Shown: piece by piece, positions 11,858 to 32,628 of the stretch
Layout of the letters: each line of letters opens with the position of its first letter
Numbering within the stretch: the stretch's first letter is position 1
DNA from: a virus
DNA: 64,000 bases
Reading direction: 5' to 3' (one strand)
IMG/VR virus record: IMGVR_UViG_3300042691_038651
Span: 1-64,000 of that record
The notes under the pieces: generated by a model
Databases searched by the model: none
Told to the model about the DNA's origin: nothing
What the model saw: the letters and a program-made list of their open reading frames with translations, nothing else
Translations under genes and position numbers: made by a program

Positions 11858-12238
11858 GTGAAGTCATTCGTAGAATTCCTTACTGAAGCAAAAGGCGCTG
11901 GAAACATTAAAAACTCCAAGACGCTCGAAATGCCGCTTGGCGACAATCCTCTTACAATAGGAATGAACCATGCGGATCCTACTATTGACGGGCTTCGCAC
12001 ACATTTACTTGACATTTTTTGGCCAAAAGCTAATGGCGACAAAAAATTAGAGACCAAGATCAATCAATGTATTACTACATTTGCTCACGCAATGGACAAA
12101 AAGCTAAGGATTGATGAGGATATCATCATTCTATTAGCAAAATGTGCAAATATGAGCCAGGATGAAGTGACCAAAATACTCAGCGAGGAGCTGGATAAAT
12201 ACTACGGTCAATTTCAAAACATATATGGAATGACATAA
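11858..12238 (+). CDS. CTS-leader protein (putative internal head protein)
   Basis: Starts MKSFVEFLTE|A, directly after late motif GATATATAG. Confidence 0.65.
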   Translation: MKSFVEFLTEAKGAGNIKNSKTLEMPLGDNPLTIGMNHADPTIDGLRTHLLDIFWPKANGDKKLETKINQCITTFAHAMDKKLRIDEDIIILLAKCANMSQDEVTKILSEELDKYYGQFQNIYGMT

Positions 12239-12250
12239 AAATAAAGCAAC

Positions 12251-12592
12251 ATGATGAAAAAGTTTAGCGAATGGATTGGTTCAGTAAGAGAAGCAGAAGA
12301 GAAAGAGCTTTCTCCTCTACAGAAATCTTACCGTGAATACTTTCAAGCAAAATTGTCAAAATTTGGAGTTGAGTCTCCTGCTGACCTCGACGACGAAAAG
12401 AAGAAAGAGTTCTTCAACGAAATCTCTGCTGATTGGGAAGCTGGAAAAGGCGTAAAACCTGCAGCAAAAGAAGAGATTGAGAAAGAGAAAGAAGAGGCTA
12501 AAGAGAAGGAGAAAGAAGAGCCTTCAAAAGATGTAGCAGACCTTGAGGGAAGCCCCGAGGACAAAATGGAAGACCTAACAAAAACCAAATAA
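12251..12592 (+). CDS. highly charged CTS-like protein, paralog A
   Basis: MKKFSEWIGSVRE|A; about 75 aa nearly identical to the next ORF; E/K-rich tail. Confidence 0.7.
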   Translation: MMKKFSEWIGSVREAEEKELSPLQKSYREYFQAKLSKFGVESPADLDDEKKKEFFNEISADWEAGKGVKPAAKEEIEKEKEEAKEKEKEEPSKDVADLEGSPEDKMEDLTKTK

Positions 12593-12595
12593 GAT

Positions 12596-13021
12596 ATGAA
12601 AAAATTTAGCGAATGGATTGGAACAGTCCGCGAAGCAGCCGAAGCAAAAAAATCTGAGCTTCAGAAGTCTTACCAAGACTATTTTCAAGCCAAGTTAGCA
12701 AAATACGGGGTAGAATCTCCTGCTGACCTTGATGAGGAGAAGAAAAAAGAATTCTTTAACGAGATCTCTGCTGACTGGGATGCTGGTAAAGGTGTTAAGC
12801 CTGCTGCCAAAGAAAAGGTGGAAAAAGAAAAGGAAGAAGCTGGAATTAAAGAAGGCGAAGTTCCTGCTGCAAAACCTGCTGAAGAGACTGCCGAGCTTCC
12901 AAAAGCTGATGAAACTCCGGAAAGTACTGAGGTAAAAGCTGCTGAACCTAAGAAAGAGGAAGAGCAGGGAACCGAGGTTAACAAGGAAGGTGACATCGAC
13001 ACAGAAAAAGAAGTAAAGTAA
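12596..13021 (+). CDS. highly charged CTS-like protein, paralog B
   Basis: MKKFSEWIGTVRE|A; tandem paralog of 12251..12592. Confidence 0.7.
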   Translation: MKKFSEWIGTVREAAEAKKSELQKSYQDYFQAKLAKYGVESPADLDEEKKKEFFNEISADWDAGKGVKPAAKEKVEKEKEEAGIKEGEVPAAKPAEETAELPKADETPESTEVKAAEPKKEEEQGTEVNKEGDIDTEKEVK

Positions 13022-13022
13022 G

Positions 13023-13268
13023 ATGAACTTTTCAGAATTTGAAAAAGGCATTAACGAAGCTCCTAACTATTCTCCTGAGAGACTAAAAGCACACTCCGAT
13101 AAAGCTGAAAAGCTTCGTCAGGCTGCTTTAGCCGCTTGTTCCAAAAACCAAAAGTTCTTGGATATGAAGAATCTGGGAGGCCAGCAACTAGACAATGCTG
13201 AAGAGGCATTTGAAGATCTGGAATCTGCAATGGAGGCCTACTTTGACCACTTAAAAACTGCACCTTAA
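13023..13268 (+). CDS. CTS-leader protein
   Basis: MNFSEFEKGINE|A. Confidence 0.6.
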   Translation: MNFSEFEKGINEAPNYSPERLKAHSDKAEKLRQAALAACSKNQKFLDMKNLGGQQLDNAEEAFEDLESAMEAYFDHLKTAP

Positions 13269-13269
13269 T

Positions 13270-13737
13270 ATGAAACACGCAAAAACATTTGAAGCTTTTA
13301 TTGCTGAAAAACTAACTGCAAAAAATCCTAATGAAGTTGTTACCATCGATGCTGATATGGCATATGATAACCCTATGGATGCTAAAGTAGTTTTTAATAA
13401 GTTCAAGCTTAAAGTAAAAGAGGTTAAAGGCGGTCAAGGCACTGAGCACGAGATCACTGGAACCAAGAAAGACATTCTTGCATATCTACAGAGCGAATTC
13501 TATGAAATGGAAGACGAGGATATTAAAGAGTTATATCCCGAGCTGCTTGAAGGAAATGAGCTTGACGAAGCAATGGTACAAATTGCCGGAAAGAGCAAGC
13601 CTTCTGGAGCTAAAGTACTTGCCATAGTTCTTGTTGACTATATGATTGAAAAGGACTATCTTAAACCAGGAATGGATAAGTCGAAGAAAAATCTGGTAGA
13701 TGATCTTCAACAATTCATTATGGATAACACTTTCTAA
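13270..13737 (+). CDS. CTS-leader two-module protein
   Basis: MKHAKTFEAFIAE; internal linker LLEGNELDE|A. Confidence 0.7.
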   Translation: MKHAKTFEAFIAEKLTAKNPNEVVTIDADMAYDNPMDAKVVFNKFKLKVKEVKGGQGTEHEITGTKKDILAYLQSEFYEMEDEDIKELYPELLEGNELDEAMVQIAGKSKPSGAKVLAIVLVDYMIEKDYLKPGMDKSKKNLVDDLQQFIMDNTF

Positions 13738-13739
13738 GT

Positions 13740-14054
13740 ATGAAACATATAAACACCTTTGAGTCATTCATAAACGAGGCATACCGTCAGGTTCCTTACA
13801 ATGCAAAAATCTCTGGCAAATACGAAATTACCATAGACGGAAAGAACCTGGTTACAAATGTAGCTGGATTCGAGAGACAAGACGATGACAACGATTCTCT
13901 CTATTTTATGGATGATGATCCGCTCAAAGCTGAGCATGGAAGTTTTATCGTTAAAAATAGCGATATGATAAAACTATCAAAAGGTGCTACTGTGAATGCT
14001 GTTTGTTCTAAACACGGTAAACCAGCAAAAATCAAAAGAGTAGGAGATCTGTGA
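13740..14054 (+). CDS. CTS-leader protein
   Basis: MKHINTFESFINE|A. Confidence 0.7.
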   Translation: MKHINTFESFINEAYRQVPYNAKISGKYEITIDGKNLVTNVAGFERQDDDNDSLYFMDDDPLKAEHGSFIVKNSDMIKLSKGATVNAVCSKHGKPAKIKRVGDL

Positions 14055-14404
14055 AACACATACACACATTTGAAAGCTTTTTGAACGAGGCAAAACTTAA
14101 TGAGTATGGAGCCAAACCATCAGCAGATAACTGGTTAGGTTGGTTTGTGCTAACAGGCAATTTGCGTGGAGATTTGAATGCGTGGAAAAAAGGAGAGCTG
14201 GTTAAGGCACACACATCAGATGACAAAGACTATGTTTTTGTGGTAACAGGCGATACCAATTACGAGGCTTACGATGATATCGCAAAAGCTGACTTTGATA
14301 AAATTGCTGAGCCGCTAAATAAAGACAAGCACAAAAAGTCTTACAACTACGTACAGAAATTGAAAAAGCTAAACCAACTAAAAGATTGGGAAGCAATTGA
14401 CTAA
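14051..14404 (+). CDS. CTS-leader protein
   Basis: GTG start, MKHIHTFESFLNE|A. Confidence 0.7.
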   Translation: MKHIHTFESFLNEAKLNEYGAKPSADNWLGWFVLTGNLRGDLNAWKKGELVKAHTSDDKDYVFVVTGDTNYEAYDDIAKADFDKIAEPLNKDKHKKSYNYVQKLKKLNQLKDWEAID

Positions 14405-14419
14405 AAAATATAAGTGAAG

Positions 14420-14860
14420 ATGAAACACGTAAACACGTTTGAAAACTTTCTAGGAGAAGCAAAAGTATTAAAGAAAAATGATACTACCTATGGATGGCAT
14501 ATGGCTATTATAGAGTCAGACATTTTTGGAAAAATCAAGCTTGAGACAAAGATTGTTCCAACAGAAAAAGGAAATCACGAACCCGTTGAAGGATCTGTGA
14601 CTGCGGTGGTAAAGATGGGAATAGGAAATTCTCCTTCAGAAACCATCAAAGAGTACACAATAGATTCTGCTGATGCCAAGAAGCTTTCTACATTGTATGT
14701 TAATGCAACGGAAGAAATGGGAAAAACCGGAAAGTACGTAGGCGTTGAAGATCCTCTTAAAGAAAAGCTGGATAAAGAACTTCATGCGTTTGAATTAGAT
14801 CTTTTTGAAAAGGGCCTATCTGCTCTTGAAGACACTTTCATGAAAAAAGAATACAAATAA
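14420..14860 (+). CDS. CTS-leader protein
   Basis: MKHVNTFENFLGE|A. Confidence 0.7.
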   Translation: MKHVNTFENFLGEAKVLKKNDTTYGWHMAIIESDIFGKIKLETKIVPTEKGNHEPVEGSVTAVVKMGIGNSPSETIKEYTIDSADAKKLSTLYVNATEEMGKTGKYVGVEDPLKEKLDKELHAFELDLFEKGLSALEDTFMKKEYK

Positions 14861-14861
14861 T

Positions 14862-15458
14862 ATGAAGCATATAAAGACATTTGAGAGCTATGTTGTTAGC
14901 CTAAGTGAAGGACTAAACCCTTCCAAAATGAAAGAGCTGATTGCAGAGGTAGCTGAATTGTTAGCCGGACAACTAGCCGATGAAGGTATGGAATCTGATG
15001 AAGTGGAAAACTTTTTAGAGGAGTACCCAAATGCTGCAGAATCTACGCTGGAAGGCTTGGAGGATAAGTACGGAACTGACCTTGTCAACCTATGGCCCAA
15101 GATGAAAGCTGAGGTTATTAAAAAGGTACAAGAGATGCTAGATGAAAACGTTAATGAAGGCCGTTCAGACTTCCGCGAAATTGAAGGTAAAGACCTTGAA
15201 GACGTTTTGGATGCTGTTGCCTATTTGAATGGACAAGGACTTCCTGAAGTTGAAAAAGCTGTAAAAGGGAAAGCGCCTTACAAATTGATTGGCAGCAAAT
15301 CCGGATCTCCAAAAGGCGGCGGAATGCACATGTCATCAATTGATTTCCAAGAAAATCCAGGTGGCGTTAAAATGAGCGTTGGTGAATTCATCGATGTACT
15401 AAATACGGTATTGGATGACGCAGGCTACGACAAATTCAAAGTAAAAATCTTAAAGTAA
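14862..15458 (+). CDS. CTS-leader two-module protein
   Basis: MKHIKTFESYVVSLSE|G; internal LDENVNE|G. Confidence 0.7.
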   Translation: MKHIKTFESYVVSLSEGLNPSKMKELIAEVAELLAGQLADEGMESDEVENFLEEYPNAAESTLEGLEDKYGTDLVNLWPKMKAEVIKKVQEMLDENVNEGRSDFREIEGKDLEDVLDAVAYLNGQGLPEVEKAVKGKAPYKLIGSKSGSPKGGGMHMSSIDFQENPGGVKMSVGEFIDVLNTVLDDAGYDKFKVKILK

Positions 15459-16780
15459 TGGGTCTTAAAAACTACACACAATTCCTCAGAGAATCTGCTC
15501 TCATTGAAATGATGAGATTGGACCAGGAAGCTGGCCTATATGAGGAACATCTTTTTGAAGGCGGCGCATACGGTCACATCAGTCACCCGTTTGAAGACTT
15601 TGGTCTTACAATGGCTGACCTTCAAAATATGATCAATACAACTGTCAACGGTGCTTTTGGTCCTGAGAATTTTGTGCAGGAAAAGACCGATGGACAAAAC
15701 ATACTCATTTCTTGGAAGAACGGTAAGCTGATTGCTGCGAGAAACAAATCTCACTTAAAAAATGCGGGAGAAGCCGCATTGGATTCTTCTGGTATTGCCA
15801 ATATGTTTGCAGGTCGAGGAGACATTGAAACTGCATACAATGCGGCAATGGAAGATCTATCAGCTGCAATCGGAAAGCTTTCTGATGCTGACAAGAAAAA
15901 ATACTTTGAGGAAGGCAAGAAATTTGCTTCGGTTGAAGTAATTACCCCTATCACACAAAATACCGTTCCTTACGGAAAGGACATGTTAGTTCTTCACGGA
16001 GTAGTTGAACACGACGATGCCGGTAATGCGGTAGGTGAAGACAAACAGGCTGGCCGTGATTTAGGAAAACTTATTGCTGACGCAAATGCTGCAGCACAGA
16101 AAAAGTTCTATGTACGCGGTCCTCAAGATATTGCATCTGTGCCGTTCCCAAATACTAAAGCCCGCGCAGCTTATTATGACAAAAAGTTAGCCGAAGTTAT
16201 GGCAGAGAGCGGATCAAATCCCAGCAGTACTGTTGGTGATTATGCTTTAGGCATGGGTAAGCGTATTCTTCTTGAAGAGGCTGCCGCTGCAAAGGTAACA
16301 ATACCTGAAATTGCTGTTGATGGTTTAGCACGTCGCATTGCTGACATTGACAAATCATATAGTGTTCCACAGATCAAAAAAGATCTTGGTGCAGATGCTG
16401 ATTGGTTCATTACACTAGAGAAAGACAAAGGCAAAGCATTGAAGAGAAAGATCTATGCTCCGCTTGAGAGTCTGTTCCTGGAAATTGGAACCGAGATGAT
16501 GAAAAACATTAGCGCTTTCCTATCAGCCAATCCTACTGATGCGGCACAGGCAATGCGTAAAGAAATTGATAGTACAATCTCTAAGGTTCGCACCAACGGA
16601 GATGAAAAGGATGTAGAAAAACTTGAACATGAACTTACCCGAGTTGCTGCTGCCGGAGGATTGGAAAGTATTGTTCCAACTGAAGGCATCACATTCGTAT
16701 TCAATGGCAAGCTGTATAAATATACTGGAATCTTTGCTCCATTACACCAAATAAGAAGCATCCTTGCTTACAAAAAGTAA
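15458..16780 (+). CDS. ligase-like nucleotidyltransferase-fold protein with CTS-like leader
   Basis: MGLKNYTQFLRE; LFE|GGAYGHISHPF; ligase motif I EKTDG; EGITF resembles motif IV; YKYTG.FAP. Confidence 0.55.
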   Translation: MGLKNYTQFLRESALIEMMRLDQEAGLYEEHLFEGGAYGHISHPFEDFGLTMADLQNMINTTVNGAFGPENFVQEKTDGQNILISWKNGKLIAARNKSHLKNAGEAALDSSGIANMFAGRGDIETAYNAAMEDLSAAIGKLSDADKKKYFEEGKKFASVEVITPITQNTVPYGKDMLVLHGVVEHDDAGNAVGEDKQAGRDLGKLIADANAAAQKKFYVRGPQDIASVPFPNTKARAAYYDKKLAEVMAESGSNPSSTVGDYALGMGKRILLEEAAAAKVTIPEIAVDGLARRIADIDKSYSVPQIKKDLGADADWFITLEKDKGKALKRKIYAPLESLFLEIGTEMMKNISAFLSANPTDAAQAMRKEIDSTISKVRTNGDEKDVEKLEHELTRVAAAGGLESIVPTEGITFVFNGKLYKYTGIFAPLHQIRSILAYKK

Positions 16781-16787
16781 TATGAAC

Positions 16788-17180
16788 ATGAAAAGCATTA
16801 AAACATTCGAAGCCTTCTTGAGAGAAGCTGAGGAAGAAAAACCAAAAGGAAAAGAAGGAGAAGGCGCAGCTCAAGAACCGGAAGGTCCTACCATTGACAA
16901 AGATCAACCTCGAATGAAAGATTTTGAGATTGACGGAAAGAAATATAAAGGCGTTCTTTCTACATTTGCTGCTATTGCTAAAAAACAAGAGGCAATGGGC
17001 GAGACTGAAATAGGAATCCTCACATTACCTGGAGAGGCTGCTGCTTACGAGCTGTTTACTGATGAAGGAGAGAAAGATGAAGAAGGCGAAGGCGAGGAAA
17101 AGAAAGAAGAACCTAAAGAAGAACCAGCAGCTGAAGAGCCAAAAAAGAAGAAAGAGGACGAGCTGGATCTGAATCTCTAA
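16788..17180 (+). CDS. acidic CTS-leader protein
   Basis: MKSIKTFEAFLRE|A; E/K-rich. Confidence 0.65.
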   Translation: MKSIKTFEAFLREAEEEKPKGKEGEGAAQEPEGPTIDKDQPRMKDFEIDGKKYKGVLSTFAAIAKKQEAMGETEIGILTLPGEAAAYELFTDEGEKDEEGEGEEKKEEPKEEPAAEEPKKKKEDELDLNL

Positions 17181-17196
17181 AATAACTTTTTGATGT

Positions 17197-17805
17197 ATGT
17201 GCTATACACGTGAACAGATTGAAAAGGCCGTGAAGGCAAAAGGTTACAAATGGTTTGAAGATGCCGCTAACAAAACCTATGATGTAAATATCGTAGGAGT
17301 TCGTAACAATACTCCTTCAGTTGCCGATAAGGTTACCAACGTATTTGATGATTGCCTGACAATCTCTTACAAAGACGAAACAGGTGCATGGCAGTTTTAC
17401 TGCTGGATGGGAACCTGCGATCCTGGTAAAAAAGGCGTAGAACAGTTCCACAATAGCAGAGGAGTTGCTCGACTTGTTCCTGGACAATACCGCGGAGTTT
17501 GGATGATTGATAAACACCAAGGAAAGTACGATGCTCTTTGCCAAAGAGGCGGTAATGTTACTGTGTATCGAGATGCTGACCGCAATGCAACATTCAATGA
17601 AAGCGTGACTGACACGGGAATGTTTGGTATAAACATTCACAAAGCTGGCCAAGATTCAACCTGGGTTGAAAATTGGAGCGAGGGCTGTCAAGTTTTCAAA
17701 AGAGTAAAAGATTTTGATGCTTTTATGTCAATCTGTCGCAAAGCTGCAAAGATTCACGGAAACAAATTTTCTTACACTCTAATAGAATCAACTGATATTG
17801 CATGA
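17197..17805 (+). CDS. putative peptidoglycan-acting enzyme/endolysin (YkuD L,D-transpeptidase-like motif)
   Basis: GINIHKAG...WSEGCQVF has the H-x-n-SxGC catalytic arrangement; no CTS leader. Confidence 0.55.
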   Translation: MCYTREQIEKAVKAKGYKWFEDAANKTYDVNIVGVRNNTPSVADKVTNVFDDCLTISYKDETGAWQFYCWMGTCDPGKKGVEQFHNSRGVARLVPGQYRGVWMIDKHQGKYDALCQRGGNVTVYRDADRNATFNESVTDTGMFGINIHKAGQDSTWVENWSEGCQVFKRVKDFDAFMSICRKAAKIHGNKFSYTLIESTDIA

Positions 17806-18380
17806 ACTACATAAAGACATTTGAAAGCTTCATTTTTGAAGCGGATGGAAAAAAAGTTGTTTTCTTTCCAGGTAGGTTTCAGCCGTTTCACAATGGCCAC
17901 CTAGCCGCTTTGAAGAGAACTTCAGAAGAGTTTGGCTTGCCGGTTATTCCACTGCAAATTGTTTCCAAAAATGAAGACTCACCGTTTCCCGATGCTCTTC
18001 TCAATAAAATGGCAAAAGATGTGGTAGCTGCAAATAGCTTTATCGCTGACTTTTTCATCTATCCAAAAGGAGAAAAGACCGTCATTCCTATGATGGTACA
18101 ATTTCTTCGCAAACAGGGATACGAACCAATGGGACTGGGCGCCGGCGCTGACCGCATGAAAGACTATCTTCGTCAGGTTGACTACATCACGGGTCCTAAA
18201 ACCGATACACCGGTTGATCCCAGCTTTACAGTAAAAATGGTAGATGCCCGTGAAGGCGATGGACCAAGTGGAACAAAAGTTCGTCAAGCCTTGAAGGACG
18301 ACGACCAGGCAGCATTCAACGCTTTAATGCCAAAAGAACTACATAAATACTATAAGGAACTCCAAAAATACATACGCTAA
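17802..18380 (+). CDS. HxGH nucleotidyltransferase (cytidylyl/NMN-adenylyltransferase-like) with CTS leader
   Basis: MNYIKTFESFIFE|A; GRFQPFHNGH; GADR; SGTKVR. Confidence 0.8.
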   Translation: MNYIKTFESFIFEADGKKVVFFPGRFQPFHNGHLAALKRTSEEFGLPVIPLQIVSKNEDSPFPDALLNKMAKDVVAANSFIADFFIYPKGEKTVIPMMVQFLRKQGYEPMGLGAGADRMKDYLRQVDYITGPKTDTPVDPSFTVKMVDAREGDGPSGTKVRQALKDDDQAAFNALMPKELHKYYKELQKYIR

Positions 18381-18381
18381 T

Positions 18382-18720
18382 ATGAAACACATACACACAT
18401 TTGAAAGCTACATAAATGAATCTCATTACGCTTTCTTAGGAGGAAATTCCAATTTCACGGATGATGAAATGCGCAAAAATGTAGTCGACAAAGTATTGGG
18501 GAAAAAATATGATGCATACATCATGTTTGACGACGATGCACCAAAAGGAGAATATGACAAGATGAAAGCCAAATACGCTGCAAATACAGATGGGTGGGAA
18601 ACAATTTGGAGATCACAGTCATATCAAGGAGAAGCACGTCTTTCACCTGACAAGAAAGTTATTAAAGCAAGCATTTTTGGAAAAGGCGGAATCATCGGGG
18701 CCATCTATGTAAAGAAATAA
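18382..18720 (+). CDS. CTS-leader protein
   Basis: MKHIHTFESYINE|S. Confidence 0.7.
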   Translation: MKHIHTFESYINESHYAFLGGNSNFTDDEMRKNVVDKVLGKKYDAYIMFDDDAPKGEYDKMKAKYAANTDGWETIWRSQSYQGEARLSPDKKVIKASIFGKGGIIGAIYVKK

Positions 18721-18738: not shown

Positions 18739-19371
18739 ATGATAGTAGATCTATTCGTACACAAAGACAAAAGCTCTCCCACAACTCAGGTTTGGCAGAG
18801 CTTTTTTAGTGAATACCTGCCGCATTGGAAACTGCGGCTCTGTTTTGCTGATGAAATTCTTAGATCTGACGCAAAACATGTACTATTCCCAGGCGGCTCA
18901 GGTTCAGCCTTTTACAAAGCTCTTGGAGAAGAAAACTCAGCAAGAGTCATTGATTGGGTACACCGTGGAGGATCATACATTGGTGTTTGTGCAGGCGCCT
19001 ACTTGGCATCCAGCCACTTAAAGATTACACCACTGTCCATACCGGACAAGGCATGGGAGCGCGGCTTACACGATGCTGACATACTGATGGATGGCAAGAT
19101 ACAAACCGTAAACTACCATAACGGACCAATCTTTGAGTCACATCCTAATGTGGAAGTATGGGCAACTTTTAAGAGTAATTACCTGGCAGAAGGTGGGTAT
19201 TTTGCAATGGAGGAAACTCCTGCAATTACTCATAATGAATACGGCATGGGCTTAGTTACCCTGTTTAGCCCGCATCTAGAAAAGTCGTCGCACGAAATAA
19301 AGAAAGAATTGGCTCTCATCTTTGAATATATAGAAAGTAAAAATCATCCAAGTCTCACATGCAATACGTAA
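18739..19371 (+). CDS. class I glutamine amidotransferase-like protein (BPL_N type)
   Basis: FPGGSG, YIGVCAGAYLA (Cys nucleophile elbow), SPHLE (His-x-Glu). Confidence 0.8.
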   Translation: MIVDLFVHKDKSSPTTQVWQSFFSEYLPHWKLRLCFADEILRSDAKHVLFPGGSGSAFYKALGEENSARVIDWVHRGGSYIGVCAGAYLASSHLKITPLSIPDKAWERGLHDADILMDGKIQTVNYHNGPIFESHPNVEVWATFKSNYLAEGGYFAMEETPAITHNEYGMGLVTLFSPHLEKSSHEIKKELALIFEYIESKNHPSLTCNT

Positions 19372-20450
19372 AACTCTTCGAGGAATTCATCTACGAGGAA
19401 AACTTCAAAAGCAAATATGCCAAAAAAGTGGCATGGATCATGCAGTCACACGACATTCATTCCACATCAGGAAATGTAAATGCTCGTGAAAAGAAATACA
19501 ATGTGGCTGCCAAAGGCAATCTCTTCCTTAATTTTGCAACTAAAGAGGAGTTTGACAAGGATGACATTATAGTTCCTAACAACGTTCCTATCCTCTACTA
19601 TGGTGGATCTAAGGACGAGGAATCAGCAACTTTTATCAAAAACAAAAAGATTGTAGTAGATAACCTCTACAATAAGAGAGACTTGCTAATGATTTCTGGA
19701 GATAAAACCCAGTTTGCTGAAAAAGCCAACAAGTTCAACTGGTTGCCAAAGACCGTATTTTCCAAGAAGGAAGCTGTTGACGGCGCGGTAGGATTCCCGG
19801 TAATTGCCAAGATCAAAAACGGTCACAGTGGAAAAGGAATTCAAAAGTTTGACACAGCAGAAGAATTAGAAAAGAGCAAAGAGACGTTTGACCTCTTTTG
19901 CCAGTTTATTGATTTTGACCGTGAGTACCGTGTAATGTTCTGCCGTGACAAGATCATCGTGATCAACGAAAGAGTCCCGACCATCGAGGACAACCGCTCC
20001 ATCCGCACCAAGAAAGCGGATGAAAAAATTAGCTTCACTTATGTCTACCAAGACCAAAATAAAGTTGACAAAAGCTTTATTGAGCAGGTATTGTCAATAT
20101 GTAAAGACGTCAAAACATTCCTCGATTTGGACCTTTGGGCCCTTGATGTGGTGGTAGACAAAAAAGGAAAACTCTGGGTGATGGAAACATCATCTGCGAC
20201 AGGATTGGGTAGCGTGAAAATGTGCGAAGTCTATAAAGCAATCTATGAAGACTTCTACAAGGAGCCGCTTCCCGATGAATTTTTGCAAGACATCTACTTA
20301 AACTATGTAGTTCCCGGACATCAAAACTACTATCCCAAGTACAAAAAAGAAATACAGTCATCGCAGTGGCCGATGGACTATGAAATACTAACCAACCCTA
20401 AAGCCAAAGATGGCTATAGGTACTTTTTCAATCTAGACGTTAAAAAATGA
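19359..20450 (+). CDS. ATP-grasp (RimK-like) ligase with CTS leader
   Basis: MQYVKLFEEFIYE; FPVIAKIKNGHSGKGI, QFID..REYRV, ALDVVVDKKGKLWVMETSS. Confidence 0.8.
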   Translation: MQYVKLFEEFIYEENFKSKYAKKVAWIMQSHDIHSTSGNVNAREKKYNVAAKGNLFLNFATKEEFDKDDIIVPNNVPILYYGGSKDEESATFIKNKKIVVDNLYNKRDLLMISGDKTQFAEKANKFNWLPKTVFSKKEAVDGAVGFPVIAKIKNGHSGKGIQKFDTAEELEKSKETFDLFCQFIDFDREYRVMFCRDKIIVINERVPTIEDNRSIRTKKADEKISFTYVYQDQNKVDKSFIEQVLSICKDVKTFLDLDLWALDVVVDKKGKLWVMETSSATGLGSVKMCEVYKAIYEDFYKEPLPDEFLQDIYLNYVVPGHQNYYPKYKKEIQSSQWPMDYEILTNPKAKDGYRYFFNLDVKK

Positions 20451-21505
20451 GAACCGGAGTTTTTAAGACATCATACAAGGAAAACGAAAAGCGCATTCCA
20501 ATCTATCCTGAGCACATTCGCAAAATCAAGAGAAGTGTTCGTGAACAATTAGTATTTGAAGAAGGTTATGGTCTTGACTATGGATATTCTGATGAAGATC
20601 TAAGAGATCTAGGATGCAGCCTGGCAACAAGAGAAGAACTATATCAATGCGATACGGTCATTCTTCCTAAACCAGTTGCTGCTGACTTGGAAAAACTTAA
20701 GGACGGCGCAGTACTCTGCGGATGGACACATGCTGTTCAGCAGAGAGATATCGCTGACCTGGCTATTGAAAAAGGTCTGACCCTGTTGGCATGGGAAGAG
20801 ATGAACCTAGTCAATAAGCACGGTAAAATGCACATTTTTTACCGTAACAATGAATTGGCCGGGTACGCGGGAATCTTACATTTCCTAGAACTTAAAGGAC
20901 TGGATGGCCACTATGGACCACGCAAAAATGTAGTAATCTTGGGCTATGGCTCGGTTAGTCGCGGGGCAATTTATGCTCTGCAAGGCCGCGGATTCAATAA
21001 TATCGTGGTTTATACACAAAGGCCTTCGCACCTGGTAGTTGACAAAAATCCGGATGTATGGTACAAGTCGTTTAGTACTGACAATTTGATGGAAGACTTG
21101 ATGGGTGCTGACATCATTTTCAATGGAATCTTACAAGACGTAAATGCTCCACTGACCTACATAAAGAACGAGGCGGAACTCAATGCTCTAAAGAATAACA
21201 CTGCTATTATTGACATTAGCTGTGATAAAGGCATGGGATTCTATTTTGCTGAACCTACATCATTTGAAAGTCCTATCATTGAAATGGGTCGTGGAATTTC
21301 ATACTACTCGGTAGACCATACACCTACCTATCTGTGGAATGCAGCATCCCGTGAAATCTCAAGTGCATTGCTTCCATATTTGGAAACTATCGTGGATTCC
21401 AGCAAATGGATCAATGACGCGGTGATCTATAATTCAATTGATATTCTCAATGGTAAAGTGATCAACCAAAATATAAACAAGTTCCAAGGACGTGAAGCAC
21501 ATTAA
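20447..21505 (+). CDS. ceo: N(5)-(carboxyethyl)ornithine synthase-like oxidoreductase (AlaDH/PNT family)
   Basis: KENEKRIPIYP, FEEGYG, GWTHAVQ, AWEEM, NNELAGYAG, Rossmann GYGSVSRGA, DISCD, VDHTPT. Confidence 0.8.
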   Translation: MRTGVFKTSYKENEKRIPIYPEHIRKIKRSVREQLVFEEGYGLDYGYSDEDLRDLGCSLATREELYQCDTVILPKPVAADLEKLKDGAVLCGWTHAVQQRDIADLAIEKGLTLLAWEEMNLVNKHGKMHIFYRNNELAGYAGILHFLELKGLDGHYGPRKNVVILGYGSVSRGAIYALQGRGFNNIVVYTQRPSHLVVDKNPDVWYKSFSTDNLMEDLMGADIIFNGILQDVNAPLTYIKNEAELNALKNNTAIIDISCDKGMGFYFAEPTSFESPIIEMGRGISYYSVDHTPTYLWNAASREISSALLPYLETIVDSSKWINDAVIYNSIDILNGKVINQNINKFQGREAH

Positions 21506-23238: not shown

Positions 23239-23263
23239 TATATAGCAAAAATACAAAACAATC

Positions 23264-23833: not shown

Positions 23834-23834
23834 G

Positions 23835-24548
23835 ATGAAACACATCAAAACATTTGAAAGCTTCGTTAACGAAGCACAAGACCTGGTAACATTTACCATT
23901 GACGATGATAAGCTCGACCAGCTTCTTCATGATTTTCATAAGAGAGAACTGGACTATGTAGATGTTAAAGGCGACCAGTATTACACACTGCCTCGTAGAG
24001 AATTCGATAGATTTATGGATGCTGCGGACAGCAAAGGATTCGATGTAGACTATGAAGGGTCTGAAGACTCCGTTGTCTATGTGATGGAATCTTCTATGAC
24101 AAAACTGAGTGAAGGGTATATGAGCGAACTTGATATCATACGTCAAGAGAGCAAGACTCTTGAAGAGTTCATCAAAAAAGGAAAAGCTGCTTTCCCGAAA
24201 ATTGCAAAGATGCATCATGCTGATGATTTCTTCAAAGAACTTTGGAATATGGCTCAGCAGATAAAAGAAGGTTTAAACGAATCCACCAACAGATGGTACA
24301 ATAAGATGTTGAGTCTTGGTAAATTAGGCGTTCAATTCAAATGGGTTAGTGATTTGGTCTCTCAGTCAGAAGGACTTAAAGATTCAGTAAAGAAGCACTT
24401 TTCCGGTGTAAATGAAAGAGATTTGGCAATAATTTTCAAAAGAGAAGCTGGTGCCAAATGGGATAAAGCATGCGAAATTTTTGGTGGAGTTCTCGGCAAT
24501 GATAAATCATCAGGAGAATTTGCAATTGTAAATGTAAGAACTGCATAA
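23835..24548 (+). CDS. CTS-leader three-module protein
   Basis: MKHIKTFESFVNE|A; internal VMESSMTKLSE|G and IKEGLNE|S. Confidence 0.7.
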   Translation: MKHIKTFESFVNEAQDLVTFTIDDDKLDQLLHDFHKRELDYVDVKGDQYYTLPRREFDRFMDAADSKGFDVDYEGSEDSVVYVMESSMTKLSEGYMSELDIIRQESKTLEEFIKKGKAAFPKIAKMHHADDFFKELWNMAQQIKEGLNESTNRWYNKMLSLGKLGVQFKWVSDLVSQSEGLKDSVKKHFSGVNERDLAIIFKREAGAKWDKACEIFGGVLGNDKSSGEFAIVNVRTA

Positions 24549-24850: not shown

Positions 24851-25384
24851 ATGAAACACGTAAATAACTATGAAGGCTATTTGAAGGAAAGCAATTCCTT
24901 TGACGGCATGTTAAATGAGGGTACTACTCTCTATATTAGCGATCCTAAATTTAAGGATGTTGAAACTCTGAAAGCTGACATTCTTAAAAATGCAGGTCCT
25001 GCACTTAATGATTTGCTAAGTCGCCAAGGTATCAAGTACAATCCGTTGACCGCTGCTGATAGAAGAGGAACCCGCATTACATTTGAAAGTAAGCCACTAA
25101 CTGGCAACGATCTTGGTGTTATGCAATACGGATTCAAAGAGGTTTACATCAATATCTTTAATGGTGGAGATTACCCGCAAATCAACAAGGCTGCTGGTGA
25201 AAACTTTGAGTTCTCTCCTTACATCTGGGCTACTCTAAACTATATGTACCAGCATGTGCTTGGTGGATCTAATGGATGCGGTTTGGTATTTCCAGGAGAA
25301 GACCGTGATTCAATCTACTATGATGTGGTAGGTGGAAAATGGTTAACAGCAACAGAAGCTAGCAAACGCAAAGACTGGAAATAA
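24851..25384 (+). CDS. CTS-leader protein
   Basis: MKHVNNYEGYLKE..MLNE|G; upstream GATAAATAG. Confidence 0.65.
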   Translation: MKHVNNYEGYLKESNSFDGMLNEGTTLYISDPKFKDVETLKADILKNAGPALNDLLSRQGIKYNPLTAADRRGTRITFESKPLTGNDLGVMQYGFKEVYINIFNGGDYPQINKAAGENFEFSPYIWATLNYMYQHVLGGSNGCGLVFPGEDRDSIYYDVVGGKWLTATEASKRKDWK

Positions 25385-25401: not shown

Positions 25402-25755
25402 ATGAAACACATCAAACTCTTCGAAGAATATCGATACGAGACTCGTGATATGTCATATTGGACATCCCAAAAGTCAGAGGATGAATACTTAAAAGGCCGC
25501 TTTCCTTGGTTAGCTACTAGCATAACAAAAGAATCTGAGCTTTCTGCGTTCGTAACCAAATGTATTGAAAGATGGAATCGTGAAGGCGAAAAGAACGAAC
25601 AGGTTACCAAGAAAGCCGCTGATACTGTTCAGAAGATTGCGCTAAAATACTTTCAACAATTTAATACCATTGATGGCTTTATCATAAATGCAATGATTAG
25701 AGAATTGCCAAAAACTGGAATAAAACTAAAAGATCTTGCAAATGAAGTACGTTAA
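25402..25755 (+). CDS. CTS-leader protein, homologous to the last module of 43224..44009
   Basis: MKHIKLFEEYRYE; DMSYW...YFQQFNTIDGFIINAMI. Confidence 0.7.
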   Translation: MKHIKLFEEYRYETRDMSYWTSQKSEDEYLKGRFPWLATSITKESELSAFVTKCIERWNREGEKNEQVTKKAADTVQKIALKYFQQFNTIDGFIINAMIRELPKTGIKLKDLANEVR

Positions 25756-26626
25756 GCTATTTGAGCAATTCATATTGGAAAGTGGTAATAGCGTAGACGG
25801 AGCAATTCCGTTTAAGCAAGACCAGGTAATGCCTACCGTTGATTGGGTAGTCAAAAACATTTTTCCGGAGCTTGGTCTTGTAGGACTTGACGATGATTCA
25901 GCAATTCTTGGTAGCGCTGGAAAAAAATTAGCTGACCAGACCAGCGGAGACGTTGATTTGGCAGTATCGGCTGACAAGATTGCAGGACACTTAGGCGTAT
26001 CTCTAGATAAAACATTATTTGCTCTAAACGATAAACTAAAGAGCATGGGATATTCTACCAAAATGGCGGTAGGATTCAACCAGGTGAGTATTGGCGTTCC
26101 TATTGCAGGAGATCCTAAAAATGGAGTTGGCCAATTAGACTTTATGCTATCCACTGACCTGGATTGGAGCAAATTCATTTATCATTCACCCGACTTCCGC
26201 GCTGCGGAGTCAAAATACAAAGGAGCTTACCGTAACCTGTTGCTCATGGCAACAATTGGCAAGTCATTCTTTGAAATCACCAAATCAACAGATAAAGGCG
26301 AGGTTGCTGAATACAAAGCATACGTTGTCCGCCTTAATCAGGGTATTGTGGAAGTTCGTAAGTCTTTCGAAGGAAAAAAAGGACTTGTGAAAACTGCACA
26401 GCTACTTAAACAATACGACAAAGAAATCACACGAGAACCACAAAAAGTGGTAGACCTTCTATTTAATGGAGGGCACAAGCCGTCTGACATCGATACCTAC
26501 GAAAAGCTATTGTCATTACTACAATCCGGAGACTTCAAATATCCGAACGTAATGAATGATATCTTATCCGACTTCAAAGGTAAGCTGGAAGACGCTGGGC
26601 TTCCTCTACCTGAAGGCCTCGGATAA
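25742..26626 (+). CDS. Pol-beta-type nucleotidyltransferase with CTS leader
   Basis: MKYVKLFEQFILE|S; LGSAGKK...SGDVDLAV (GS...DxD); third Asp in QLDFM. Confidence 0.7.
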   Translation: MKYVKLFEQFILESGNSVDGAIPFKQDQVMPTVDWVVKNIFPELGLVGLDDDSAILGSAGKKLADQTSGDVDLAVSADKIAGHLGVSLDKTLFALNDKLKSMGYSTKMAVGFNQVSIGVPIAGDPKNGVGQLDFMLSTDLDWSKFIYHSPDFRAAESKYKGAYRNLLLMATIGKSFFEITKSTDKGEVAEYKAYVVRLNQGIVEVRKSFEGKKGLVKTAQLLKQYDKEITREPQKVVDLLFNGGHKPSDIDTYEKLLSLLQSGDFKYPNVMNDILSDFKGKLEDAGLPLPEGLG

Positions 26627-26636
26627 ATAAGATATC

Positions 26637-28313: not shown

Positions 28314-28341
28314 AGATATATAGCAAAAATAAACTAGACAA

Positions 28342-28677
28342 ATGAGCCAAGTACTTTCATATGATCAATTTTTGAATGAGGCACTTCTTGTTGTAAAGAG
28401 AAAATACACGGACTTGCATCCGGAAAAGAAAGTTTCTAACTATGCTCCAGTAAGAGAACGCGTTCTCTCATTTATCAAGGAAAAAGGATCTGTCTCTGAA
28501 AAAGAGTTGCAGGAATTTCTCCGAATGATGAATGAAGAAACTGGGCGCAAGACAACAATGGGATGGGTGAAGGCCAATGATAAGTTTTTCACTGTCAAAA
28601 ATAACGAGGGTGAAAAAATGTATTCGCTTTCTAAAGATGGACATCGAGTTCACGATAAACTAACCTCAATTAAGTAA
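28342..28677 (+). CDS. CTS-leader protein, winged-helix-like
   Basis: MSQVLSYDQFLNE|A; RERVLSFIKEKGSVSEKEL...YSLSKDG. Confidence 0.6.
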   Translation: MSQVLSYDQFLNEALLVVKRKYTDLHPEKKVSNYAPVRERVLSFIKEKGSVSEKELQEFLRMMNEETGRKTTMGWVKANDKFFTVKNNEGEKMYSLSKDGHRVHDKLTSIK

Positions 28678-28859
28678 TGAAAAGTTTTGGAGAGTTCAAA
28701 GAAAAAATTGCAATTGAGGAAGCTCTAATTCCTGAGCTTAAAGAAATCCTCAAACATTTTGATGAAGCAGCAAACAAGGCCGAAGAGATGAACATGAAAC
28801 AGACTTTACAGGCTATTGAAAATGCTCGTCAAGAAATCATAACATTAAGCGGTAAATAA
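28677..28859 (+). CDS. small CTS-like protein
   Basis: MKSFGEFKEKIAIEE|A. Confidence 0.55.
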   Translation: MKSFGEFKEKIAIEEALIPELKEILKHFDEAANKAEEMNMKQTLQAIENARQEIITLSGK

Positions 28860-29374: not shown

Positions 29375-29375
29375 G

Positions 29376-29522
29376 ATGGCAAAGGCTGCAAAAAAATCGG
29401 AAGTAAGATCATTTGTTCGTAAGACAAGAAAAAAATTAGGAAGACACGCAAAAAAGGACACTCCTAATAAGAAAGCAAAAAACTACAAAAAAGGCTATGT
29501 AGGCCAAGGAAAAAGAAGATAA
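29376..29522 (+). CDS. very basic 48-aa protein (absent from ORF track)
   Basis: MAKAAKKSEVRSFVRKTRKKLGRHAKKDTPNKKAKNYKKGYVGQGKRR*; fits the intergenic gap. Confidence 0.6.
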   Translation: MAKAAKKSEVRSFVRKTRKKLGRHAKKDTPNKKAKNYKKGYVGQGKRR

Positions 29523-29526
29523 GGGA

Positions 29527-30129: not shown

Positions 30130-30293
30130 AAACACTCCTAAAAAGCAAAAGGCAAAAACTAGTGGATTGGATCAAATCCAAAAGAACTAACAACAAAAAG
30201 ACAGTTGTTAAACAAAAAATAGACGATGAAGGTTTAAGACTCTTGAGAGAGTATTACATCGACAAAGACGACGAAACACATCTGTTCATATGA
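30126..30293 (+). CDS. small hypothetical protein (55 aa, absent from ORF track)
   Basis: MKTLLKSKRQKLVDWIK...THLFI*, with ATGA overlaps on both sides. Confidence 0.5.
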   Translation: MKTLLKSKRQKLVDWIKSKRTNNKKTVVKQKIDDEGLRLLREYYIDKDDETHLFI

Positions 30294-30541
30294 AACACTT
30301 GCATACATTTGAAAGTTACCTGAATGAAGGTACCACAGCATCGAGTTGGAGCAAAGCTCAGCTCGACAAAGAACTAAGAGAACTTTCACAAGGAGCTAAA
30401 GATGCCGGAGACATCGATGATTCAATGGCTTTTGACATTGCAGATGGGTGGATCATGGATAACCCAGGAGTAGAGATGGCAATCAAAAAACATTACGGTG
30501 CATCTGATGCACAAGGTTTTGTTGCAAATAGAATAGCATAA
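30290..30541 (+). CDS. CTS-leader protein
   Basis: MKHLHTFESYLNE|G. Confidence 0.7.
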   Translation: MKHLHTFESYLNEGTTASSWSKAQLDKELRELSQGAKDAGDIDDSMAFDIADGWIMDNPGVEMAIKKHYGASDAQGFVANRIA

Positions 30542-30542
30542 T

Positions 30543-30887
30543 ATGAGCCACGTAAAACTATACGAAGAATTCCTTTGGGACCAAATTTGGGAAGCCGAAG
30601 ATGAAGACAAGCAGTCAACCGACCGTTCTCCTCTTGATAGCGAAGAACTTGAGACTGGTCTTAAAAATAAAGCCAAAGAATCTGGCTGTCCTATCGGAAT
30701 CATTCGCGCGGTAATGCGTCGTGGAATGGCTGCCTGGAAAAGTGGTCACCGTCCAGGTGCTGGCCAAGAACAATGGGGATACGCTCGTGTAAACTCATTT
30801 TTAACTGGTGGTAAAGGTACTTGGGGTAAAGCTGACAAGGATCTTGCAAAAGAGGCAAGAGATGCCGGGTTCAATCCAAAAAAGTAA
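30543..30887 (+). CDS. CTS-leader protein with DUF5824-like domain (from recall)
   Basis: MSHVKLYEEF; RRGMAAWKSGHRPGAGQEQWGYARVNSF. Confidence 0.65.
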   Translation: MSHVKLYEEFLWDQIWEAEDEDKQSTDRSPLDSEELETGLKNKAKESGCPIGIIRAVMRRGMAAWKSGHRPGAGQEQWGYARVNSFLTGGKGTWGKADKDLAKEARDAGFNPKK

Positions 30888-30941
30888 AAGGATAACACAA
30901 TGAAACACATACACACATTTGAAAACTTCTTGAATGAAGGC
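30885..30941 (+). repeat. 57-bp perfect direct repeat, copy 1 (upstream stop + spacer + CTS-coding sequence)
   Basis: taaaaggataacacaatgaaacacatacacacatttgaaaacttcttgaatgaaggc, identical at 31509..31565. Confidence 0.95.
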
Positions 30942-31235
30942 GTTAAGTGGAAACCTTCTAGAAATGAAAACGTTGAAGGATTTGTTGCAAAATCTTTTCC
31001 TCACGGAAAAAAAGGTGATGCACTATTATCCCGTGAAGAGTTCATCAAAAAATGGGAAGCGAGAATCGAATCATGGATTGGGGTAAAACCTAATCTGGCT
31101 GCGGTTAAAGAGTTTTTCACTAACAATGGACTAAACTTTGAATTTGTAGGAGCCGACGGCTATACTTACCGCATATACTCTCCAGGTGAAGGCCCTAGAT
31201 CTAAAGAGTACCACATACAAAAACTTAAAAAGTAA
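30900..31235 (+). CDS. CTS-leader protein
   Basis: MKHIHTFENFLNE|G. Confidence 0.72.
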   Translation: MKHIHTFENFLNEGVKWKPSRNENVEGFVAKSFPHGKKGDALLSREEFIKKWEARIESWIGVKPNLAAVKEFFTNNGLNFEFVGADGYTYRIYSPGEGPRSKEYHIQKLKK

Positions 31236-31238
31236 TAT

Positions 31239-31511
31239 ATGAAACACATACACACATTCGAAAGCTTCTTAAATGAAGGATATTCATCATCAGATATAAA
31301 CAAGTTAAAGGACTTTGCTAAAAAAGTTTCTGATGAAATCATAGCAGACTATGAAGGAGACAGCAAATTTGACAAAGAAGAATTCTCACCAGAGGCTATG
31401 TTTGACTACATATCAGACTGGGGGCAAACAAACAATATGTCAGCAAAAGATGTAATTGATGAATTTGTATGGTCAGAACTAACAGATGAATTAGGTTTGC
31501 CAAGAAATTAA
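31239..31511 (+). CDS. CTS-leader protein
   Basis: MKHIHTFESFLNE|G. Confidence 0.72.
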   Translation: MKHIHTFESFLNEGYSSSDINKLKDFAKKVSDEIIADYEGDSKFDKEEFSPEAMFDYISDWGQTNNMSAKDVIDEFVWSELTDELGLPRN

Positions 31512-31565
31512 AAGGATAACACAATGAAACACATACACACATTTGAAAACTTCTTGAATGAAGGC
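31509..31565 (+). repeat. 57-bp perfect direct repeat, copy 2
   Basis: Identical to 30885..30941. Confidence 0.95.
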
Positions 31566-31835
31566 AAAGCACAAGAATGGATTGTATTTCTTCCCATCGA
31601 AAAAGGAGACATCATCGACATAGAAAGCTCTCTGTTTGGGGTTTACAATGACGAGGAGTATGATAGAATAGCTCCATTTGACAAAGTAGGCAATTACACA
31701 ACTTCTTTATCTTTCCCTGATATGAAAGTTGCTAGAGAATACGCTGATCTTGTTAAAGACGCCAAAGGAGATATGAAATCTCCGGCTTTCAAAAAAGCAG
31801 ATGAGTTTGAAAAGAAAAACAAAATAGTTCGATGA
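31524..31835 (+). CDS. CTS-leader protein
   Basis: MKHIHTFENFLNE|G. Confidence 0.72.
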   Translation: MKHIHTFENFLNEGKAQEWIVFLPIEKGDIIDIESSLFGVYNDEEYDRIAPFDKVGNYTTSLSFPDMKVAREYADLVKDAKGDMKSPAFKKADEFEKKNKIVR

Positions 31836-32119
31836 AACACATACACACATTCGAAAGCTTTGTAAATGAAGGCGCGCCAACCAATACGGTTGAAGACATA
31901 ATAGACACTATTAAAGACGGCTTAGGATGGGCTACTCCTGATTATGTGCTACAAACTCCACTTAACAGGGCAGGTAGAATAGCATTGGCAATTAGGCTAG
32001 CAGAAATAGGTATTCTTTTTAATGATGATGATCTAGGCGATGATATGAATGTCAATCCGTTAAAAGACAAGAAGATTAAACCTATGTCTGTAGCAGACGC
32101 TAAAAAAGCAATACTGTAA
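31832..32119 (+). CDS. CTS-leader protein
   Basis: MKHIHTFESFVNE|G. Confidence 0.72.
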   Translation: MKHIHTFESFVNEGAPTNTVEDIIDTIKDGLGWATPDYVLQTPLNRAGRIALAIRLAEIGILFNDDDLGDDMNVNPLKDKKIKPMSVADAKKAIL

Positions 32120-32120
32120 G

Positions 32121-32393
32121 ATGAAACACATAAGCACATTTGAAAGCTTTTTGAATGAAGGCAATTATAGCCTACAAAGTATCGACGACGCAACTGTTGA
32201 AGAGTTCGAAAAAGACTGGAACAGTGGATCTAAAATCGGCGGGTTATTAAAGCTGATCAAAGCTGCCACTGGAAAAGACATATCAGATATTCCAGAGAAG
32301 GCTGTAGAAGAGTTTGATAAAATTGTTGGCGGAGGAATAAAGGCTTCGCCAGCAGCAATCAAGATTCTTGATGTTCTAAACAAATACGCATAA
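32121..32393 (+). CDS. CTS-leader protein
   Basis: MKHISTFESFLNE|G. Confidence 0.72.
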   Translation: MKHISTFESFLNEGNYSLQSIDDATVEEFEKDWNSGSKIGGLLKLIKAATGKDISDIPEKAVEEFDKIVGGGIKASPAAIKILDVLNKYA

Positions 32394-32394
32394 G

Positions 32395-32628
32395 ATGAAA
32401 CACATTAGCACATTTGAGAATTTCCTCAACGAGGAACATCCATACTACAAGGGCATCAGCAAAAGTACTGAGACCAAGAAGAAGGCTCAAATGGCTGACC
32501 AGGCTGCTGCGGATGATGATGATCCCGATGCTTACAAAGAGCTGCCTGGAGATAAAAAAGGAAAGAAGCTCCTAAAAACTTCTAAGCACACCAAGACATA
32601 TCACGAACTTTACGGAGACAAGAAATAG
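32395..32628 (+). CDS. CTS-leader protein
   Basis: MKHISTFENFLNE; YYKGISKST...DDDDPDAYKELPGD...KTSKHTK. Confidence 0.7.
   Translation: MKHISTFENFLNEEHPYYKGISKSTETKKKAQMADQAAADDDDPDAYKELPGDKKGKKLLKTSKHTKTYHELYGDKK

Follow-up and report, generated by a model that had tools for sequence, protein, structure and literature searches.

A 13-residue N-terminal leader on 27 genes of a probable T4-related jumbo phage resembles the capsid targeting sequence of phage T4

Background

The principle that a short N-terminal tag directs proteins into the phage head, and the diversity of the internal head proteins of T-even phages, are textbook knowledge. Among these diverse T-even internal proteins the tag alone is conserved (Rao and Black, PMC3012670), and the capsid targeting sequence (CTS) of T4 has been printed as MKTYQEFIAE (10.1101/2021.01.19.427310). 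Propeptides of 10-20 residues dock proteins on the prohead core and are removed after Glu by the prohead protease gp21; in phages phiKZ, 201phi2-1 and SPN3US, dozens of internal head proteins are processed after Glu, and paralogues among them may share identical N-terminal 15-mers (PMC5694885). Here we describe a 13-residue N-terminal leader, with the consensus MKHIxTFExFLNE, that is carried by 27 genes (13270-44990, all on the + strand) in the opening 64 kb of an IMG/VR virus contig of 100.8 kb (record IMGVR_UViG_3300042691_038651; these 64 kb, in full, are referred to as the window, and genes are named by their start positions). We consider it likely that this leader is a T4-type CTS which is three residues longer than that of T4 and is used on a much larger scale.

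Results

A conserved leader on 27 genes

Tagged open reading frames (ORFs) are tightly packed over positions 11858-32628 and again over 42806-44990 (Table 1). A position matrix was made from 25 clear leaders and used with a hit threshold of 8 bits; these 25 leaders score 24.9-42.9 bits, two start-codon variants (30543 and 44739) score 13.3 and 13.7 bits, and in all 27 matrix-positive genes the start codon lies 1-32 codons past a stop. Eight further matrix hits (8-13 bits) fall away from start codons, and five shuffles of the contig gave 1-3 hits each at the same threshold. A hidden Markov model (HMM) trained on 23 leaders and tested on every one of the 2108 candidate starts in the whole contig yielded E < 0.02 for 27 genes, four of which (14862, 22711, 30543 and 44739) were outside the training set. 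In neither the matrix nor the HMM scan of the contig was the leader found on a helicase, polymerase, topoisomerase, clamp or reductase gene.

An earlier reading of this DNA (the sequence-only reading) had listed 35 tagged genes, had described the replication genes as untagged and had proposed a profile scan of the genome and of related phages. All 35 starts are true ORF starts on the + strand, and the absence of the leader from replication genes is borne out by both scans. The count itself stands for the 27 start sites that the profile scan recovers as significant; it does not stand for eight weak or degenerate variants (11858, 12251, 12596, 13023, 15458, 23264, 28342 and 28677), none of which is significant alone (HMM E 0.4-5 or no hit). 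These eight nonetheless finish in hydrophobic-x-Glu followed by Ala or Ser, and two of them are located directly downstream of a promoter-like motif. A short leader class (Met-Lys-x-Phe-x-Glu-Phe/Trp) was too rare to establish, with 10 N-terminal versus 4 internal matches in the sampled loci. Separately, a 112-aa ORF at 5203-5541, right behind a GATATATAG motif (see below), has a leader-like start and Leu-Asn-Glu followed by Ser at residues 27-30; it may represent a tagged protein with a longer propeptide.

Matches to the tags of T4 and S16-like phages

When the HMM built from leaders of the window only was run over the six frames of the whole T4 genome, exactly two hits were obtained, i.e., the N-termini of ipII and ipIII, in which the T4 tag is seen as MKTYQEFIAE. 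A tblastn search with the first 20 residues of 23835 against 50,697 phage records matched nine records, representing one huge uncultured phage and eight S16-like T-even phages (T4-like Salmonella/Proteus phages); in these eight the match is located at the N-terminus of a gene for which several of the records give the annotation internal virion protein or Ip4. In S16, the tags finish in TYE(D/E)FINE followed by Ala or Ser, an eight-residue pattern shared with several leaders of the window; 13740 has TFESFINE followed by Ala (6/8 identical). No cultured phage with the 13-residue tag was found. Both searches support the likeness to the T4 capsid-targeting tag that the sequence-only reading had claimed.

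Phage group, spread of the leader and the head module of relatives

The contig, almost all genes of which are on the + strand, has an estimated completeness of ~35% (CheckV), which implies a genome of roughly 290 kb and hence a jumbo phage. It encodes a portal of the T4 gp20 type (Table 1), indicating a head of T4 type, as well as a gp15-like tail gene, a tail sheath and a terminase. The nearest portals in databases are those of uncultured huge phages (LR756500, 49% identity), Prevotella Lak phages, Tenacibaculum phage PTm1 and Sphingomonas phage PAU. We read the contig as part of the genome of an uncultured jumbo phage that is related to T4 and belongs to a phage group probably of Bacteroidota. 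Flavobacterium phage immuto, the top nucleotide match, was rejected as a relative because the common part is ribonucleotide reductase only.

A degenerate DNA pattern for the leader retrieved 88 stretches in ~65 contigs of IMG/VR, the largest of 288 kb, and a matrix scan of those loci gave 297 hits, 258 of them at start codons just past a stop. Whole-record searches of relatives, i.e., the related-phage scan that had been proposed, also recovered the leader, with 16 matches in G006 (143 kb, half a genome; the closest relative), 26 in G002 (254 kb), 27 in G004 (234 kb), 6 in G001 (289 kb, complete) and at least 18 in LR756500 (LR756500.1; L115 and L116), a published huge phage of 462 kb with its own consensus MKYIKEYEEFILE. 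Clustering by body of the 254 tagged ORFs in the loci fetched for relatives gave 132 clusters.

A Peptidase_S77 (T4 gp21) match was found in all five large relatives G001-G005 (G003-G005 being nearly one and the same phage), and gp23-type capsid genes are present in G001-G004 and G006. In G001, G002 and LR756500, the portal gene is followed by a gene for a 630-770-aa protease-scaffold fusion and then by the capsid gene. The sequence of G006 shows a protease-scaffold gene that adjoins the capsid gene, and the annotation of PTm1 shows a corresponding arrangement of head genes.

Beyond this group, an unrelated 29-kb viral contig (L121, IMGVR_UViG_3300009710_000037) has three adjacent genes (9145-10888), standing among tail-fibre-like genes, with 10-residue tags like MKTFKQFLAE, which is nearly identical to the tag of T4. 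As T4-like 10-residue tags are also present on many members of the family to which the body of 25742 belongs, the device appears to be widespread in uncultured phages.

The end of the leader as a candidate cleavage site

Among 202 distinct leaders of the phage group, position 11 is Leu, Val or Ile in 182, position 13 is Glu in 184 and position 14 is Ala, Ser or Gly in 131; conservation collapses past position 14. A second Leu/Ile/Val-Asn-Glu occurs within seven residues in 26 of these leaders. In the relatives, a conserved Arg/Ser-Val/Ile/Leu-Asn-Glu followed by Ala or Ser is located directly past the protease domain, and the scaffold parts contain 8-16 hydrophobic-x-Glu-(Ala/Gly/Ser) sites, which is 3.5-5.5 times the proteome rate (P = 3e-3 to 9e-7). 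The capsid proteins of relatives start with ...Leu-Ile-Asn-Glu followed by Ala or Ser, and that of G006 has Ser-Leu-Asn-Glu followed by Gly near residue 45.

Homologues of tagged bodies place the same boundary. In the family of 25742, 59 of 70 aligned members have a leader of 7-22 residues with Glu immediately before a conserved Gly-Gly, eight leaderless members open with Met-Gly-Gly exactly at this boundary (the homologue in Lak phage is leaderless as well), and in long multi-domain relatives an aliphatic-x-Glu again precedes the domain. The third module of 43224 opens after an internal ...Ala-Asn-Glu followed by Ala; its homologues are 25402 and, in three further contigs, tagged genes that stand alone, and the bodies of these genes begin right past the leader. 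Internal Leu/Ile/Val-Asn-Glu-(Ala/Gly/Ser) sites in tagged proteins showed only mild over-representation (3/8), and in the window a general polyprotein reading stands on 43224 alone. Overall, these patterns suggest that the terminus of the leader is likely a cleavage motif of the S77 protease.

Diversity of the bodies behind the leader

The bodies, which had been read as mostly unrelated, are indeed mutually unrelated by BLAST except for two pairs (12254 and 12596; 25402 and the last module of 43224). Recognisable bodies are ferritin-like, cytidylyltransferase-like with an HxGH motif, ATP-grasp-like, DUF5824 and Pol-beta-like, and nearly all remaining bodies have no Pfam or PHROG annotation. 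Predicted mature bodies range from 5 to 41 kDa and are acidic as well as basic. The Pfam domains start downstream of the leader, and in an AlphaFold2 model of 25742 (predicted local distance difference test score, pLDDT, 95.7) residues 1-20 have a pLDDT of ~70 as compared to ~98 for the body. The different folds, the downstream position of the domains and the low pLDDT of the leader indicate that the leader is attached to these folds and lies outside them. Foldseek matched the 25742 model to family-X polymerase nucleotidyltransferases (Pol lambda/beta) with modest TM-scores of 0.35-0.40; for the cytidylyltransferase-like protein, an alignment of three sequences gave a poor AlphaFold2 model (pLDDT 49), which was not used.

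The family of the 25742 body comprises 722 representatives at 50% identity and has no Pfam or PHROG hit. Its domain occurs behind a short leader, without a leader, or as the last module in proteins of up to 1800 residues, and wherever residues precede the domain a Glu comes right before it. Two further observations concern the first leader block. Overlapping BPL_N/GATase-like, ATP-grasp-like and alanine-dehydrogenase/PNT-like genes at 18739-21505, of which only the middle one is tagged, look like a small pathway. An untagged 202-aa gene (17197-17805) has a His...Ser-x-Gly-Cys pattern reminiscent of YkuD-type L,D-transpeptidases or cell-wall enzymes, with no Pfam hit.

Promoter-like motifs

The GATATATAG motif has 13 sites, all of them on the + strand and each 15-40 nt upstream of a start; the - strand has none. 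The motif heads all four leader blocks, which agrees with the earlier claim that the blocks follow late-type promoter motifs, as well as the gp15-like, head-closure and tail-sheath genes and the genes at 57100 and 80726. In G006 it is located directly before the protease-scaffold gene, and in a syntenic locus (L004) it precedes homologues of 11858 and 28342. A second motif, AAAC and ATATAA separated by 16 nt, has seven sites versus 0.5 expected, all on the + strand and none in the leader blocks. A sigma-70 consensus scan of the leader blocks gave matches at chance level. At the level of sequence motifs, this distribution fits late co-expression of the leader blocks with structural genes.

Other genes of the window

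Coordinates of the tagged genes, the promoter-like motifs and the portal gene are listed in Table 1. The main leader block is closed by an Hsp20/alpha-crystallin gene (32673-33032, - strand; Pfam PF00011, E 1.7e-10), which is the sole minus-strand ORF of the window with a family match and sits just before the motif that opens the dUTPase/reductase genes. Two genes upstream of the portal gene is a gene with a TnsA-like endonuclease domain (59632-60129; PF08722, E 3e-17); in G002, G001 and LR756500, ORFs resembling it in size and start sequence are likewise located two genes before the portal.

Table 1. Tagged genes, promoter-like motifs and portal gene of the window
Feature	Position	Strand	Length (aa)	Leader HMM E	Remarks
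Late-type promoter-like motif (GATATATAG core), block 1	11833..11846	+
Weak short (10-aa) leader	11858..12238	+	126	5.4	Resembles the T4 tag itself
Weak leader variant	12254..12592	+	112		Listed start 12251; acidic; paralogue of 12596
Weak leader variant	12596..13021	+	141		Acidic; matches phrog_28651 (unknown function)
Weak leader variant	13023..13268	+	81
Leader gene	13270..13737	+	155	1.8e-8	Last 8 leader residues 5/8 identical to T4 tag
Leader gene	13740..14054	+	104	1.6e-10
Leader gene	14051..14404	+	117	7.9e-11	GTG start
Leader gene	14420..14860	+	146	2.1e-9
Leader gene	14862..15458	+	198	3.2e-7	Outside training set; Glu-Gly boundary shifted to residue 16/17
Degenerate leader variant	15458..16780	+	440	0.53	No Pfam/PHROG match
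Leader gene	16788..17180	+	130	1.8e-8	Very acidic
Leader gene, cytidylyltransferase-like (HxGH)	17802..18380	+	192	6.2e-9	PF01467 at residues 21-162, from profile position 1
Leader gene	18382..18720	+	112	3.2e-10
Leader gene, ATP-grasp-like	19359..20450	+	363	1.3e-7	Weak ATP-grasp Pfam hits
Leader gene	21492..22163	+	223	6.5e-10	GTG start
Leader gene	22160..22714	+	184	4.8e-8
Leader gene	22711..23238	+	175	1.9e-5	Outside training set; boundary at residue 14/15; 95% identical homologue in G006
Late-type promoter-like motif, block 2	23238..23251	+
Weak, longer leader variant, ferritin-like	23264..23833	+		1.2	PF00210 at residues 38-171
Leader gene	23835..24548	+	237	7.2e-11	First 20 residues used as tblastn query
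Leader gene	24851..25384	+	177	4.7e-8
Leader gene	25402..25755	+	117	1.9e-8	Body equals last module of 43224
Leader gene, Pol-beta-superfamily nucleotidyltransferase-like	25742..26626	+	294	3.6e-8	AlphaFold2, Foldseek
Late-type promoter-like motif, block 3	28316..28329	+
Weak leader variant	28342..28677	+	111	0.43	Behind promoter motif
Weak short leader variant	28677..28859	+	60
Leader gene	30290..30541	+	83	1.7e-9
Leader variant, DUF5824	30543..30887	+	114	8e-4	Outside training set; PF19141
Leader gene	30900..31235	+	111	9.9e-11
Leader gene	31239..31511	+	90	7.7e-11
Leader gene	31524..31835	+	103	1.4e-10
Leader gene	31832..32119	+	95	8.7e-11
Leader gene	32121..32393	+	90	1.2e-10
Leader gene	32395..32628	+	77	4.3e-9	Last tagged gene of the main block
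Late-type promoter-like motif, small leader block	42775..42790	+			Block between topoisomerase genes
Leader gene	42806..43222	+	138	1.7e-8
Leader gene	43224..44009	+	261	2.3e-10	Three modules, linkers ending Asn-Glu + Gly/Ala
Leader variant	44739..44990	+	83	0.014	Outside training set
Second promoter-like motif	6160, 6605, 33278, 40883, 45042, 47462, 50960	+			Before or among nucleotide-metabolism and replication genes
Portal gene, T4 gp20-type	60887..62491	+			Pfam PF07230, E 1.6e-63

Discussion

If the leader is a CTS, the tagged genes would be made late, alongside the head proteins, and the amphipathic leader would dock each protein on the scaffolding core of the prohead. The S77 prohead protease would then cut past Glu13 of the leader (at Leu/Ile/Val-x-Glu, followed mostly by Ala, Ser or Gly), probably cutting multi-module cargo such as 43224 at the internal copies of the motif as well, and the mature bodies would be retained in the head together with the DNA. 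An unusually large and exchangeable protein cargo is thus probably packed into the capsid; ejection of this cargo into the host, and an early function there, would be a more speculative step.

Several observations weigh against reading the leader as a CTS. Peptidase_S77 and gp23 matches are absent on the contig (~35% complete), and the protease, scaffold and capsid genes had to be taken from relatives because none is present on this contig. The canonical leader is lacking in the more distant phages PTm1 and Prevotella phage Lak-A1, which share the head module. The T4 and S16 matches are short and weak alone (E 0.02-0.03 per genome, ~8 with tblastn), although they fall solely on proteins annotated as packaged. 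Position 14 is other than Ala, Ser or Gly in approx. one third of the leaders, and 18 of the 202 leaders are without Glu13. The location of the ATP-grasp cargo between untagged GATase-like and alanine-dehydrogenase-like genes is odd for a packaged enzyme, and the leader codons for Thr, Ile, Ser and His are strongly biased to ACA, ATA, AGC and CAC. Finally, we infer packaging, cleavage and timing alike from sequence.

This last point leaves room for the possibility that the leader docks to another late factor (e.g., a chaperone, a modifying enzyme or a different protease) and that the tagged proteins act in the cell, unpackaged; several cargo proteins also resemble metabolic enzymes whose untagged neighbours would remain in the cell. 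We regard such a role as unlikely, given that the leader matches the experimentally defined capsid tags of T4 and S16 and nothing else in those genomes, and that it ends in a motif which also occurs where protease and scaffold join and is over-represented in the scaffold part; the blocks, viewed without a systematic co-occurrence search, showed no further conserved partner gene. A single fast-evolving paralogous family, in which the conserved N-terminus would be part of the mature protein, could account for the many small genes at 30290-32628, which are alike in size, arranged in tandem and without a detectable family. The clearly different folds behind the leader (ferritin, HxGH nucleotidyltransferase, ATP-grasp and Pol-beta-like) largely refute this explanation, and leaderless homologues of one body start at the boundary while the tagged ORFs of relatives divide into so many body clusters; we give it hardly any credence.

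The conserved element could also be mainly a nucleic-acid one, serving either translation-start tuning without a Shine-Dalgarno sequence or as a ~40-bp recombination repeat, with the peptide as a by-product. The regions upstream of tagged genes are A-rich and without Shine-Dalgarno sequences, and the leader DNA forms 19-21 dispersed direct repeats. Moreover, a 66-nt junction (30876-30941 versus 31500-31565, at genes 30900 and 31524) is 97% identical from the last part of the upstream gene through the spacer and the complete leader while the bodies differ, which suggests recent exchange or duplication at the leader. Together with the biased Thr, Ile, Ser and His codons, which indicate that, alongside selection on the peptide, the 5' end of the mRNA is likely under some constraint at the nucleotide or translation level, these features speak for such an element. 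On the other hand, Leu in the leader is encoded by five codons from both families, Ser has codons of both the AGY and the TCN type, the codons for Phe, Glu, Lys and Asn match genome usage, most copies of the leader DNA share 61-86% identity with the reference copy of the repeat family concerned, and the DNA upstream of the leaders is otherwise unconserved; these mixed codons and divergent copies argue that selection acts mainly on the peptide. The peptide is also retained across clades that differ in DNA and consensus (the LR756500 variant, the 10-mer of L121 and the stretches found in IMG/VR contigs), and a DNA element would leave the Glu + Ala/Ser/Gly boundary and the internal module joints unexplained. 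We thus consider a primarily nucleic-acid function improbable, and recombination at the leader repeat is likely a side benefit rather than the function, although exchange at the leader could shuffle cargo cassettes.

Taking the CTS reading further, it is tempting to hypothesize that the leader is an address label which can be read from sequence and which specifies the complete set of packaged proteins in a widespread group of jumbo and huge phages related to T4 and probably of Bacteroidota, with free exchange at the tag and some protease-jointed polyproteins, and that the cargo of enzymes and orphan small proteins is injected with the DNA and acts before phage gene expression, e.g., against host defences. 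We put this forward as a tentative and rather doubtful proposal; it refers to three closer relatives that were searched whole and have 16-27 tagged genes each, and to two distant relatives with fewer or weaker ones. That the cargo represents anti-defence or host-takeover effectors is speculation.

If the tag works as in T4, the head contents of many uncultured jumbo phages would be readable from their genome sequences, and the tagged set, almost all of it orphan families, would be a list of what enters the cell alongside the DNA; it is among such proteins that functions in counter-defence and host takeover are expected. The T4 packaging tag would then be old and widely used, from enterobacterial T-evens to probable Bacteroidota huge phages, and would be scalable from three proteins to dozens and combinable with protease-cut polyproteins. 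Natural variants of the tag could also be usable for loading foreign proteins into capsids.

Comparison with known packaging systems

Searches of the literature for the leader strings, or for capsid targeting in jumbo and huge phages, found only work on T4 and SPN3US. In phiKZ, 201phi2-1 and SPN3US the propeptides are mostly >100 residues long and have no common short tag, as compared to 13 residues here, and cleavage, by a gp21-related protease, follows Ser/Ala/Gly-x-Glu with a small P3 residue, whereas the leader has an aliphatic residue at P3. The phages described here differ from that type in leader length, in the P3 residue and in the protease, which in the relatives matches S77 (S80, the protease type of the phiKZ and SPN3US kind, was not searched). 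The portal and capsid sequences of phiKZ, 201phi2-1 and SPN3US are not T4-type.

The cargo-loading peptides of encapsulins are likewise short and conserved and address unrelated cargo, including ferritin-like proteins, into a shell of the HK97 fold; here, too, one ferritin-like protein bears a weak variant of the leader. Encapsulin peptides are usually C-terminal and uncleaved, and bind the shell protein instead of a scaffold.

The Ip4 and internal head proteins of the S16 group, which represent the only cultured-phage matches of the leader in the tblastn search, have a 10-residue tag; S16, whose host is enterobacterial, has two adjacent genes of this kind. Another close counterpart is the CTS of T4 (IPII and IPIII; also IPI and Alt), which, like the leader, is N-terminal, starts with Met-Lys, has an amphipathic aromatic-Glu-x-aromatic-aliphatic core, finishes in aliphatic-x-Glu followed by Ala and is found on otherwise unrelated bodies. 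Both T4 and this phage have a T4-type portal, and the relatives have a T4-type capsid protein and an S77 protease. The leader is longer than the T4 tag (13 versus 10 residues), with the three extra residues located after Met-Lys. Unlike in T4, the predicted cargo includes whole enzymes and a multi-module protein, and the protease, as read in the relatives, is fused to the scaffold. While T-even phages have a handful of tagged genes, there are 27-35 here, approx. 16-27 per related genome and 132 body clusters in the sampled relatives.

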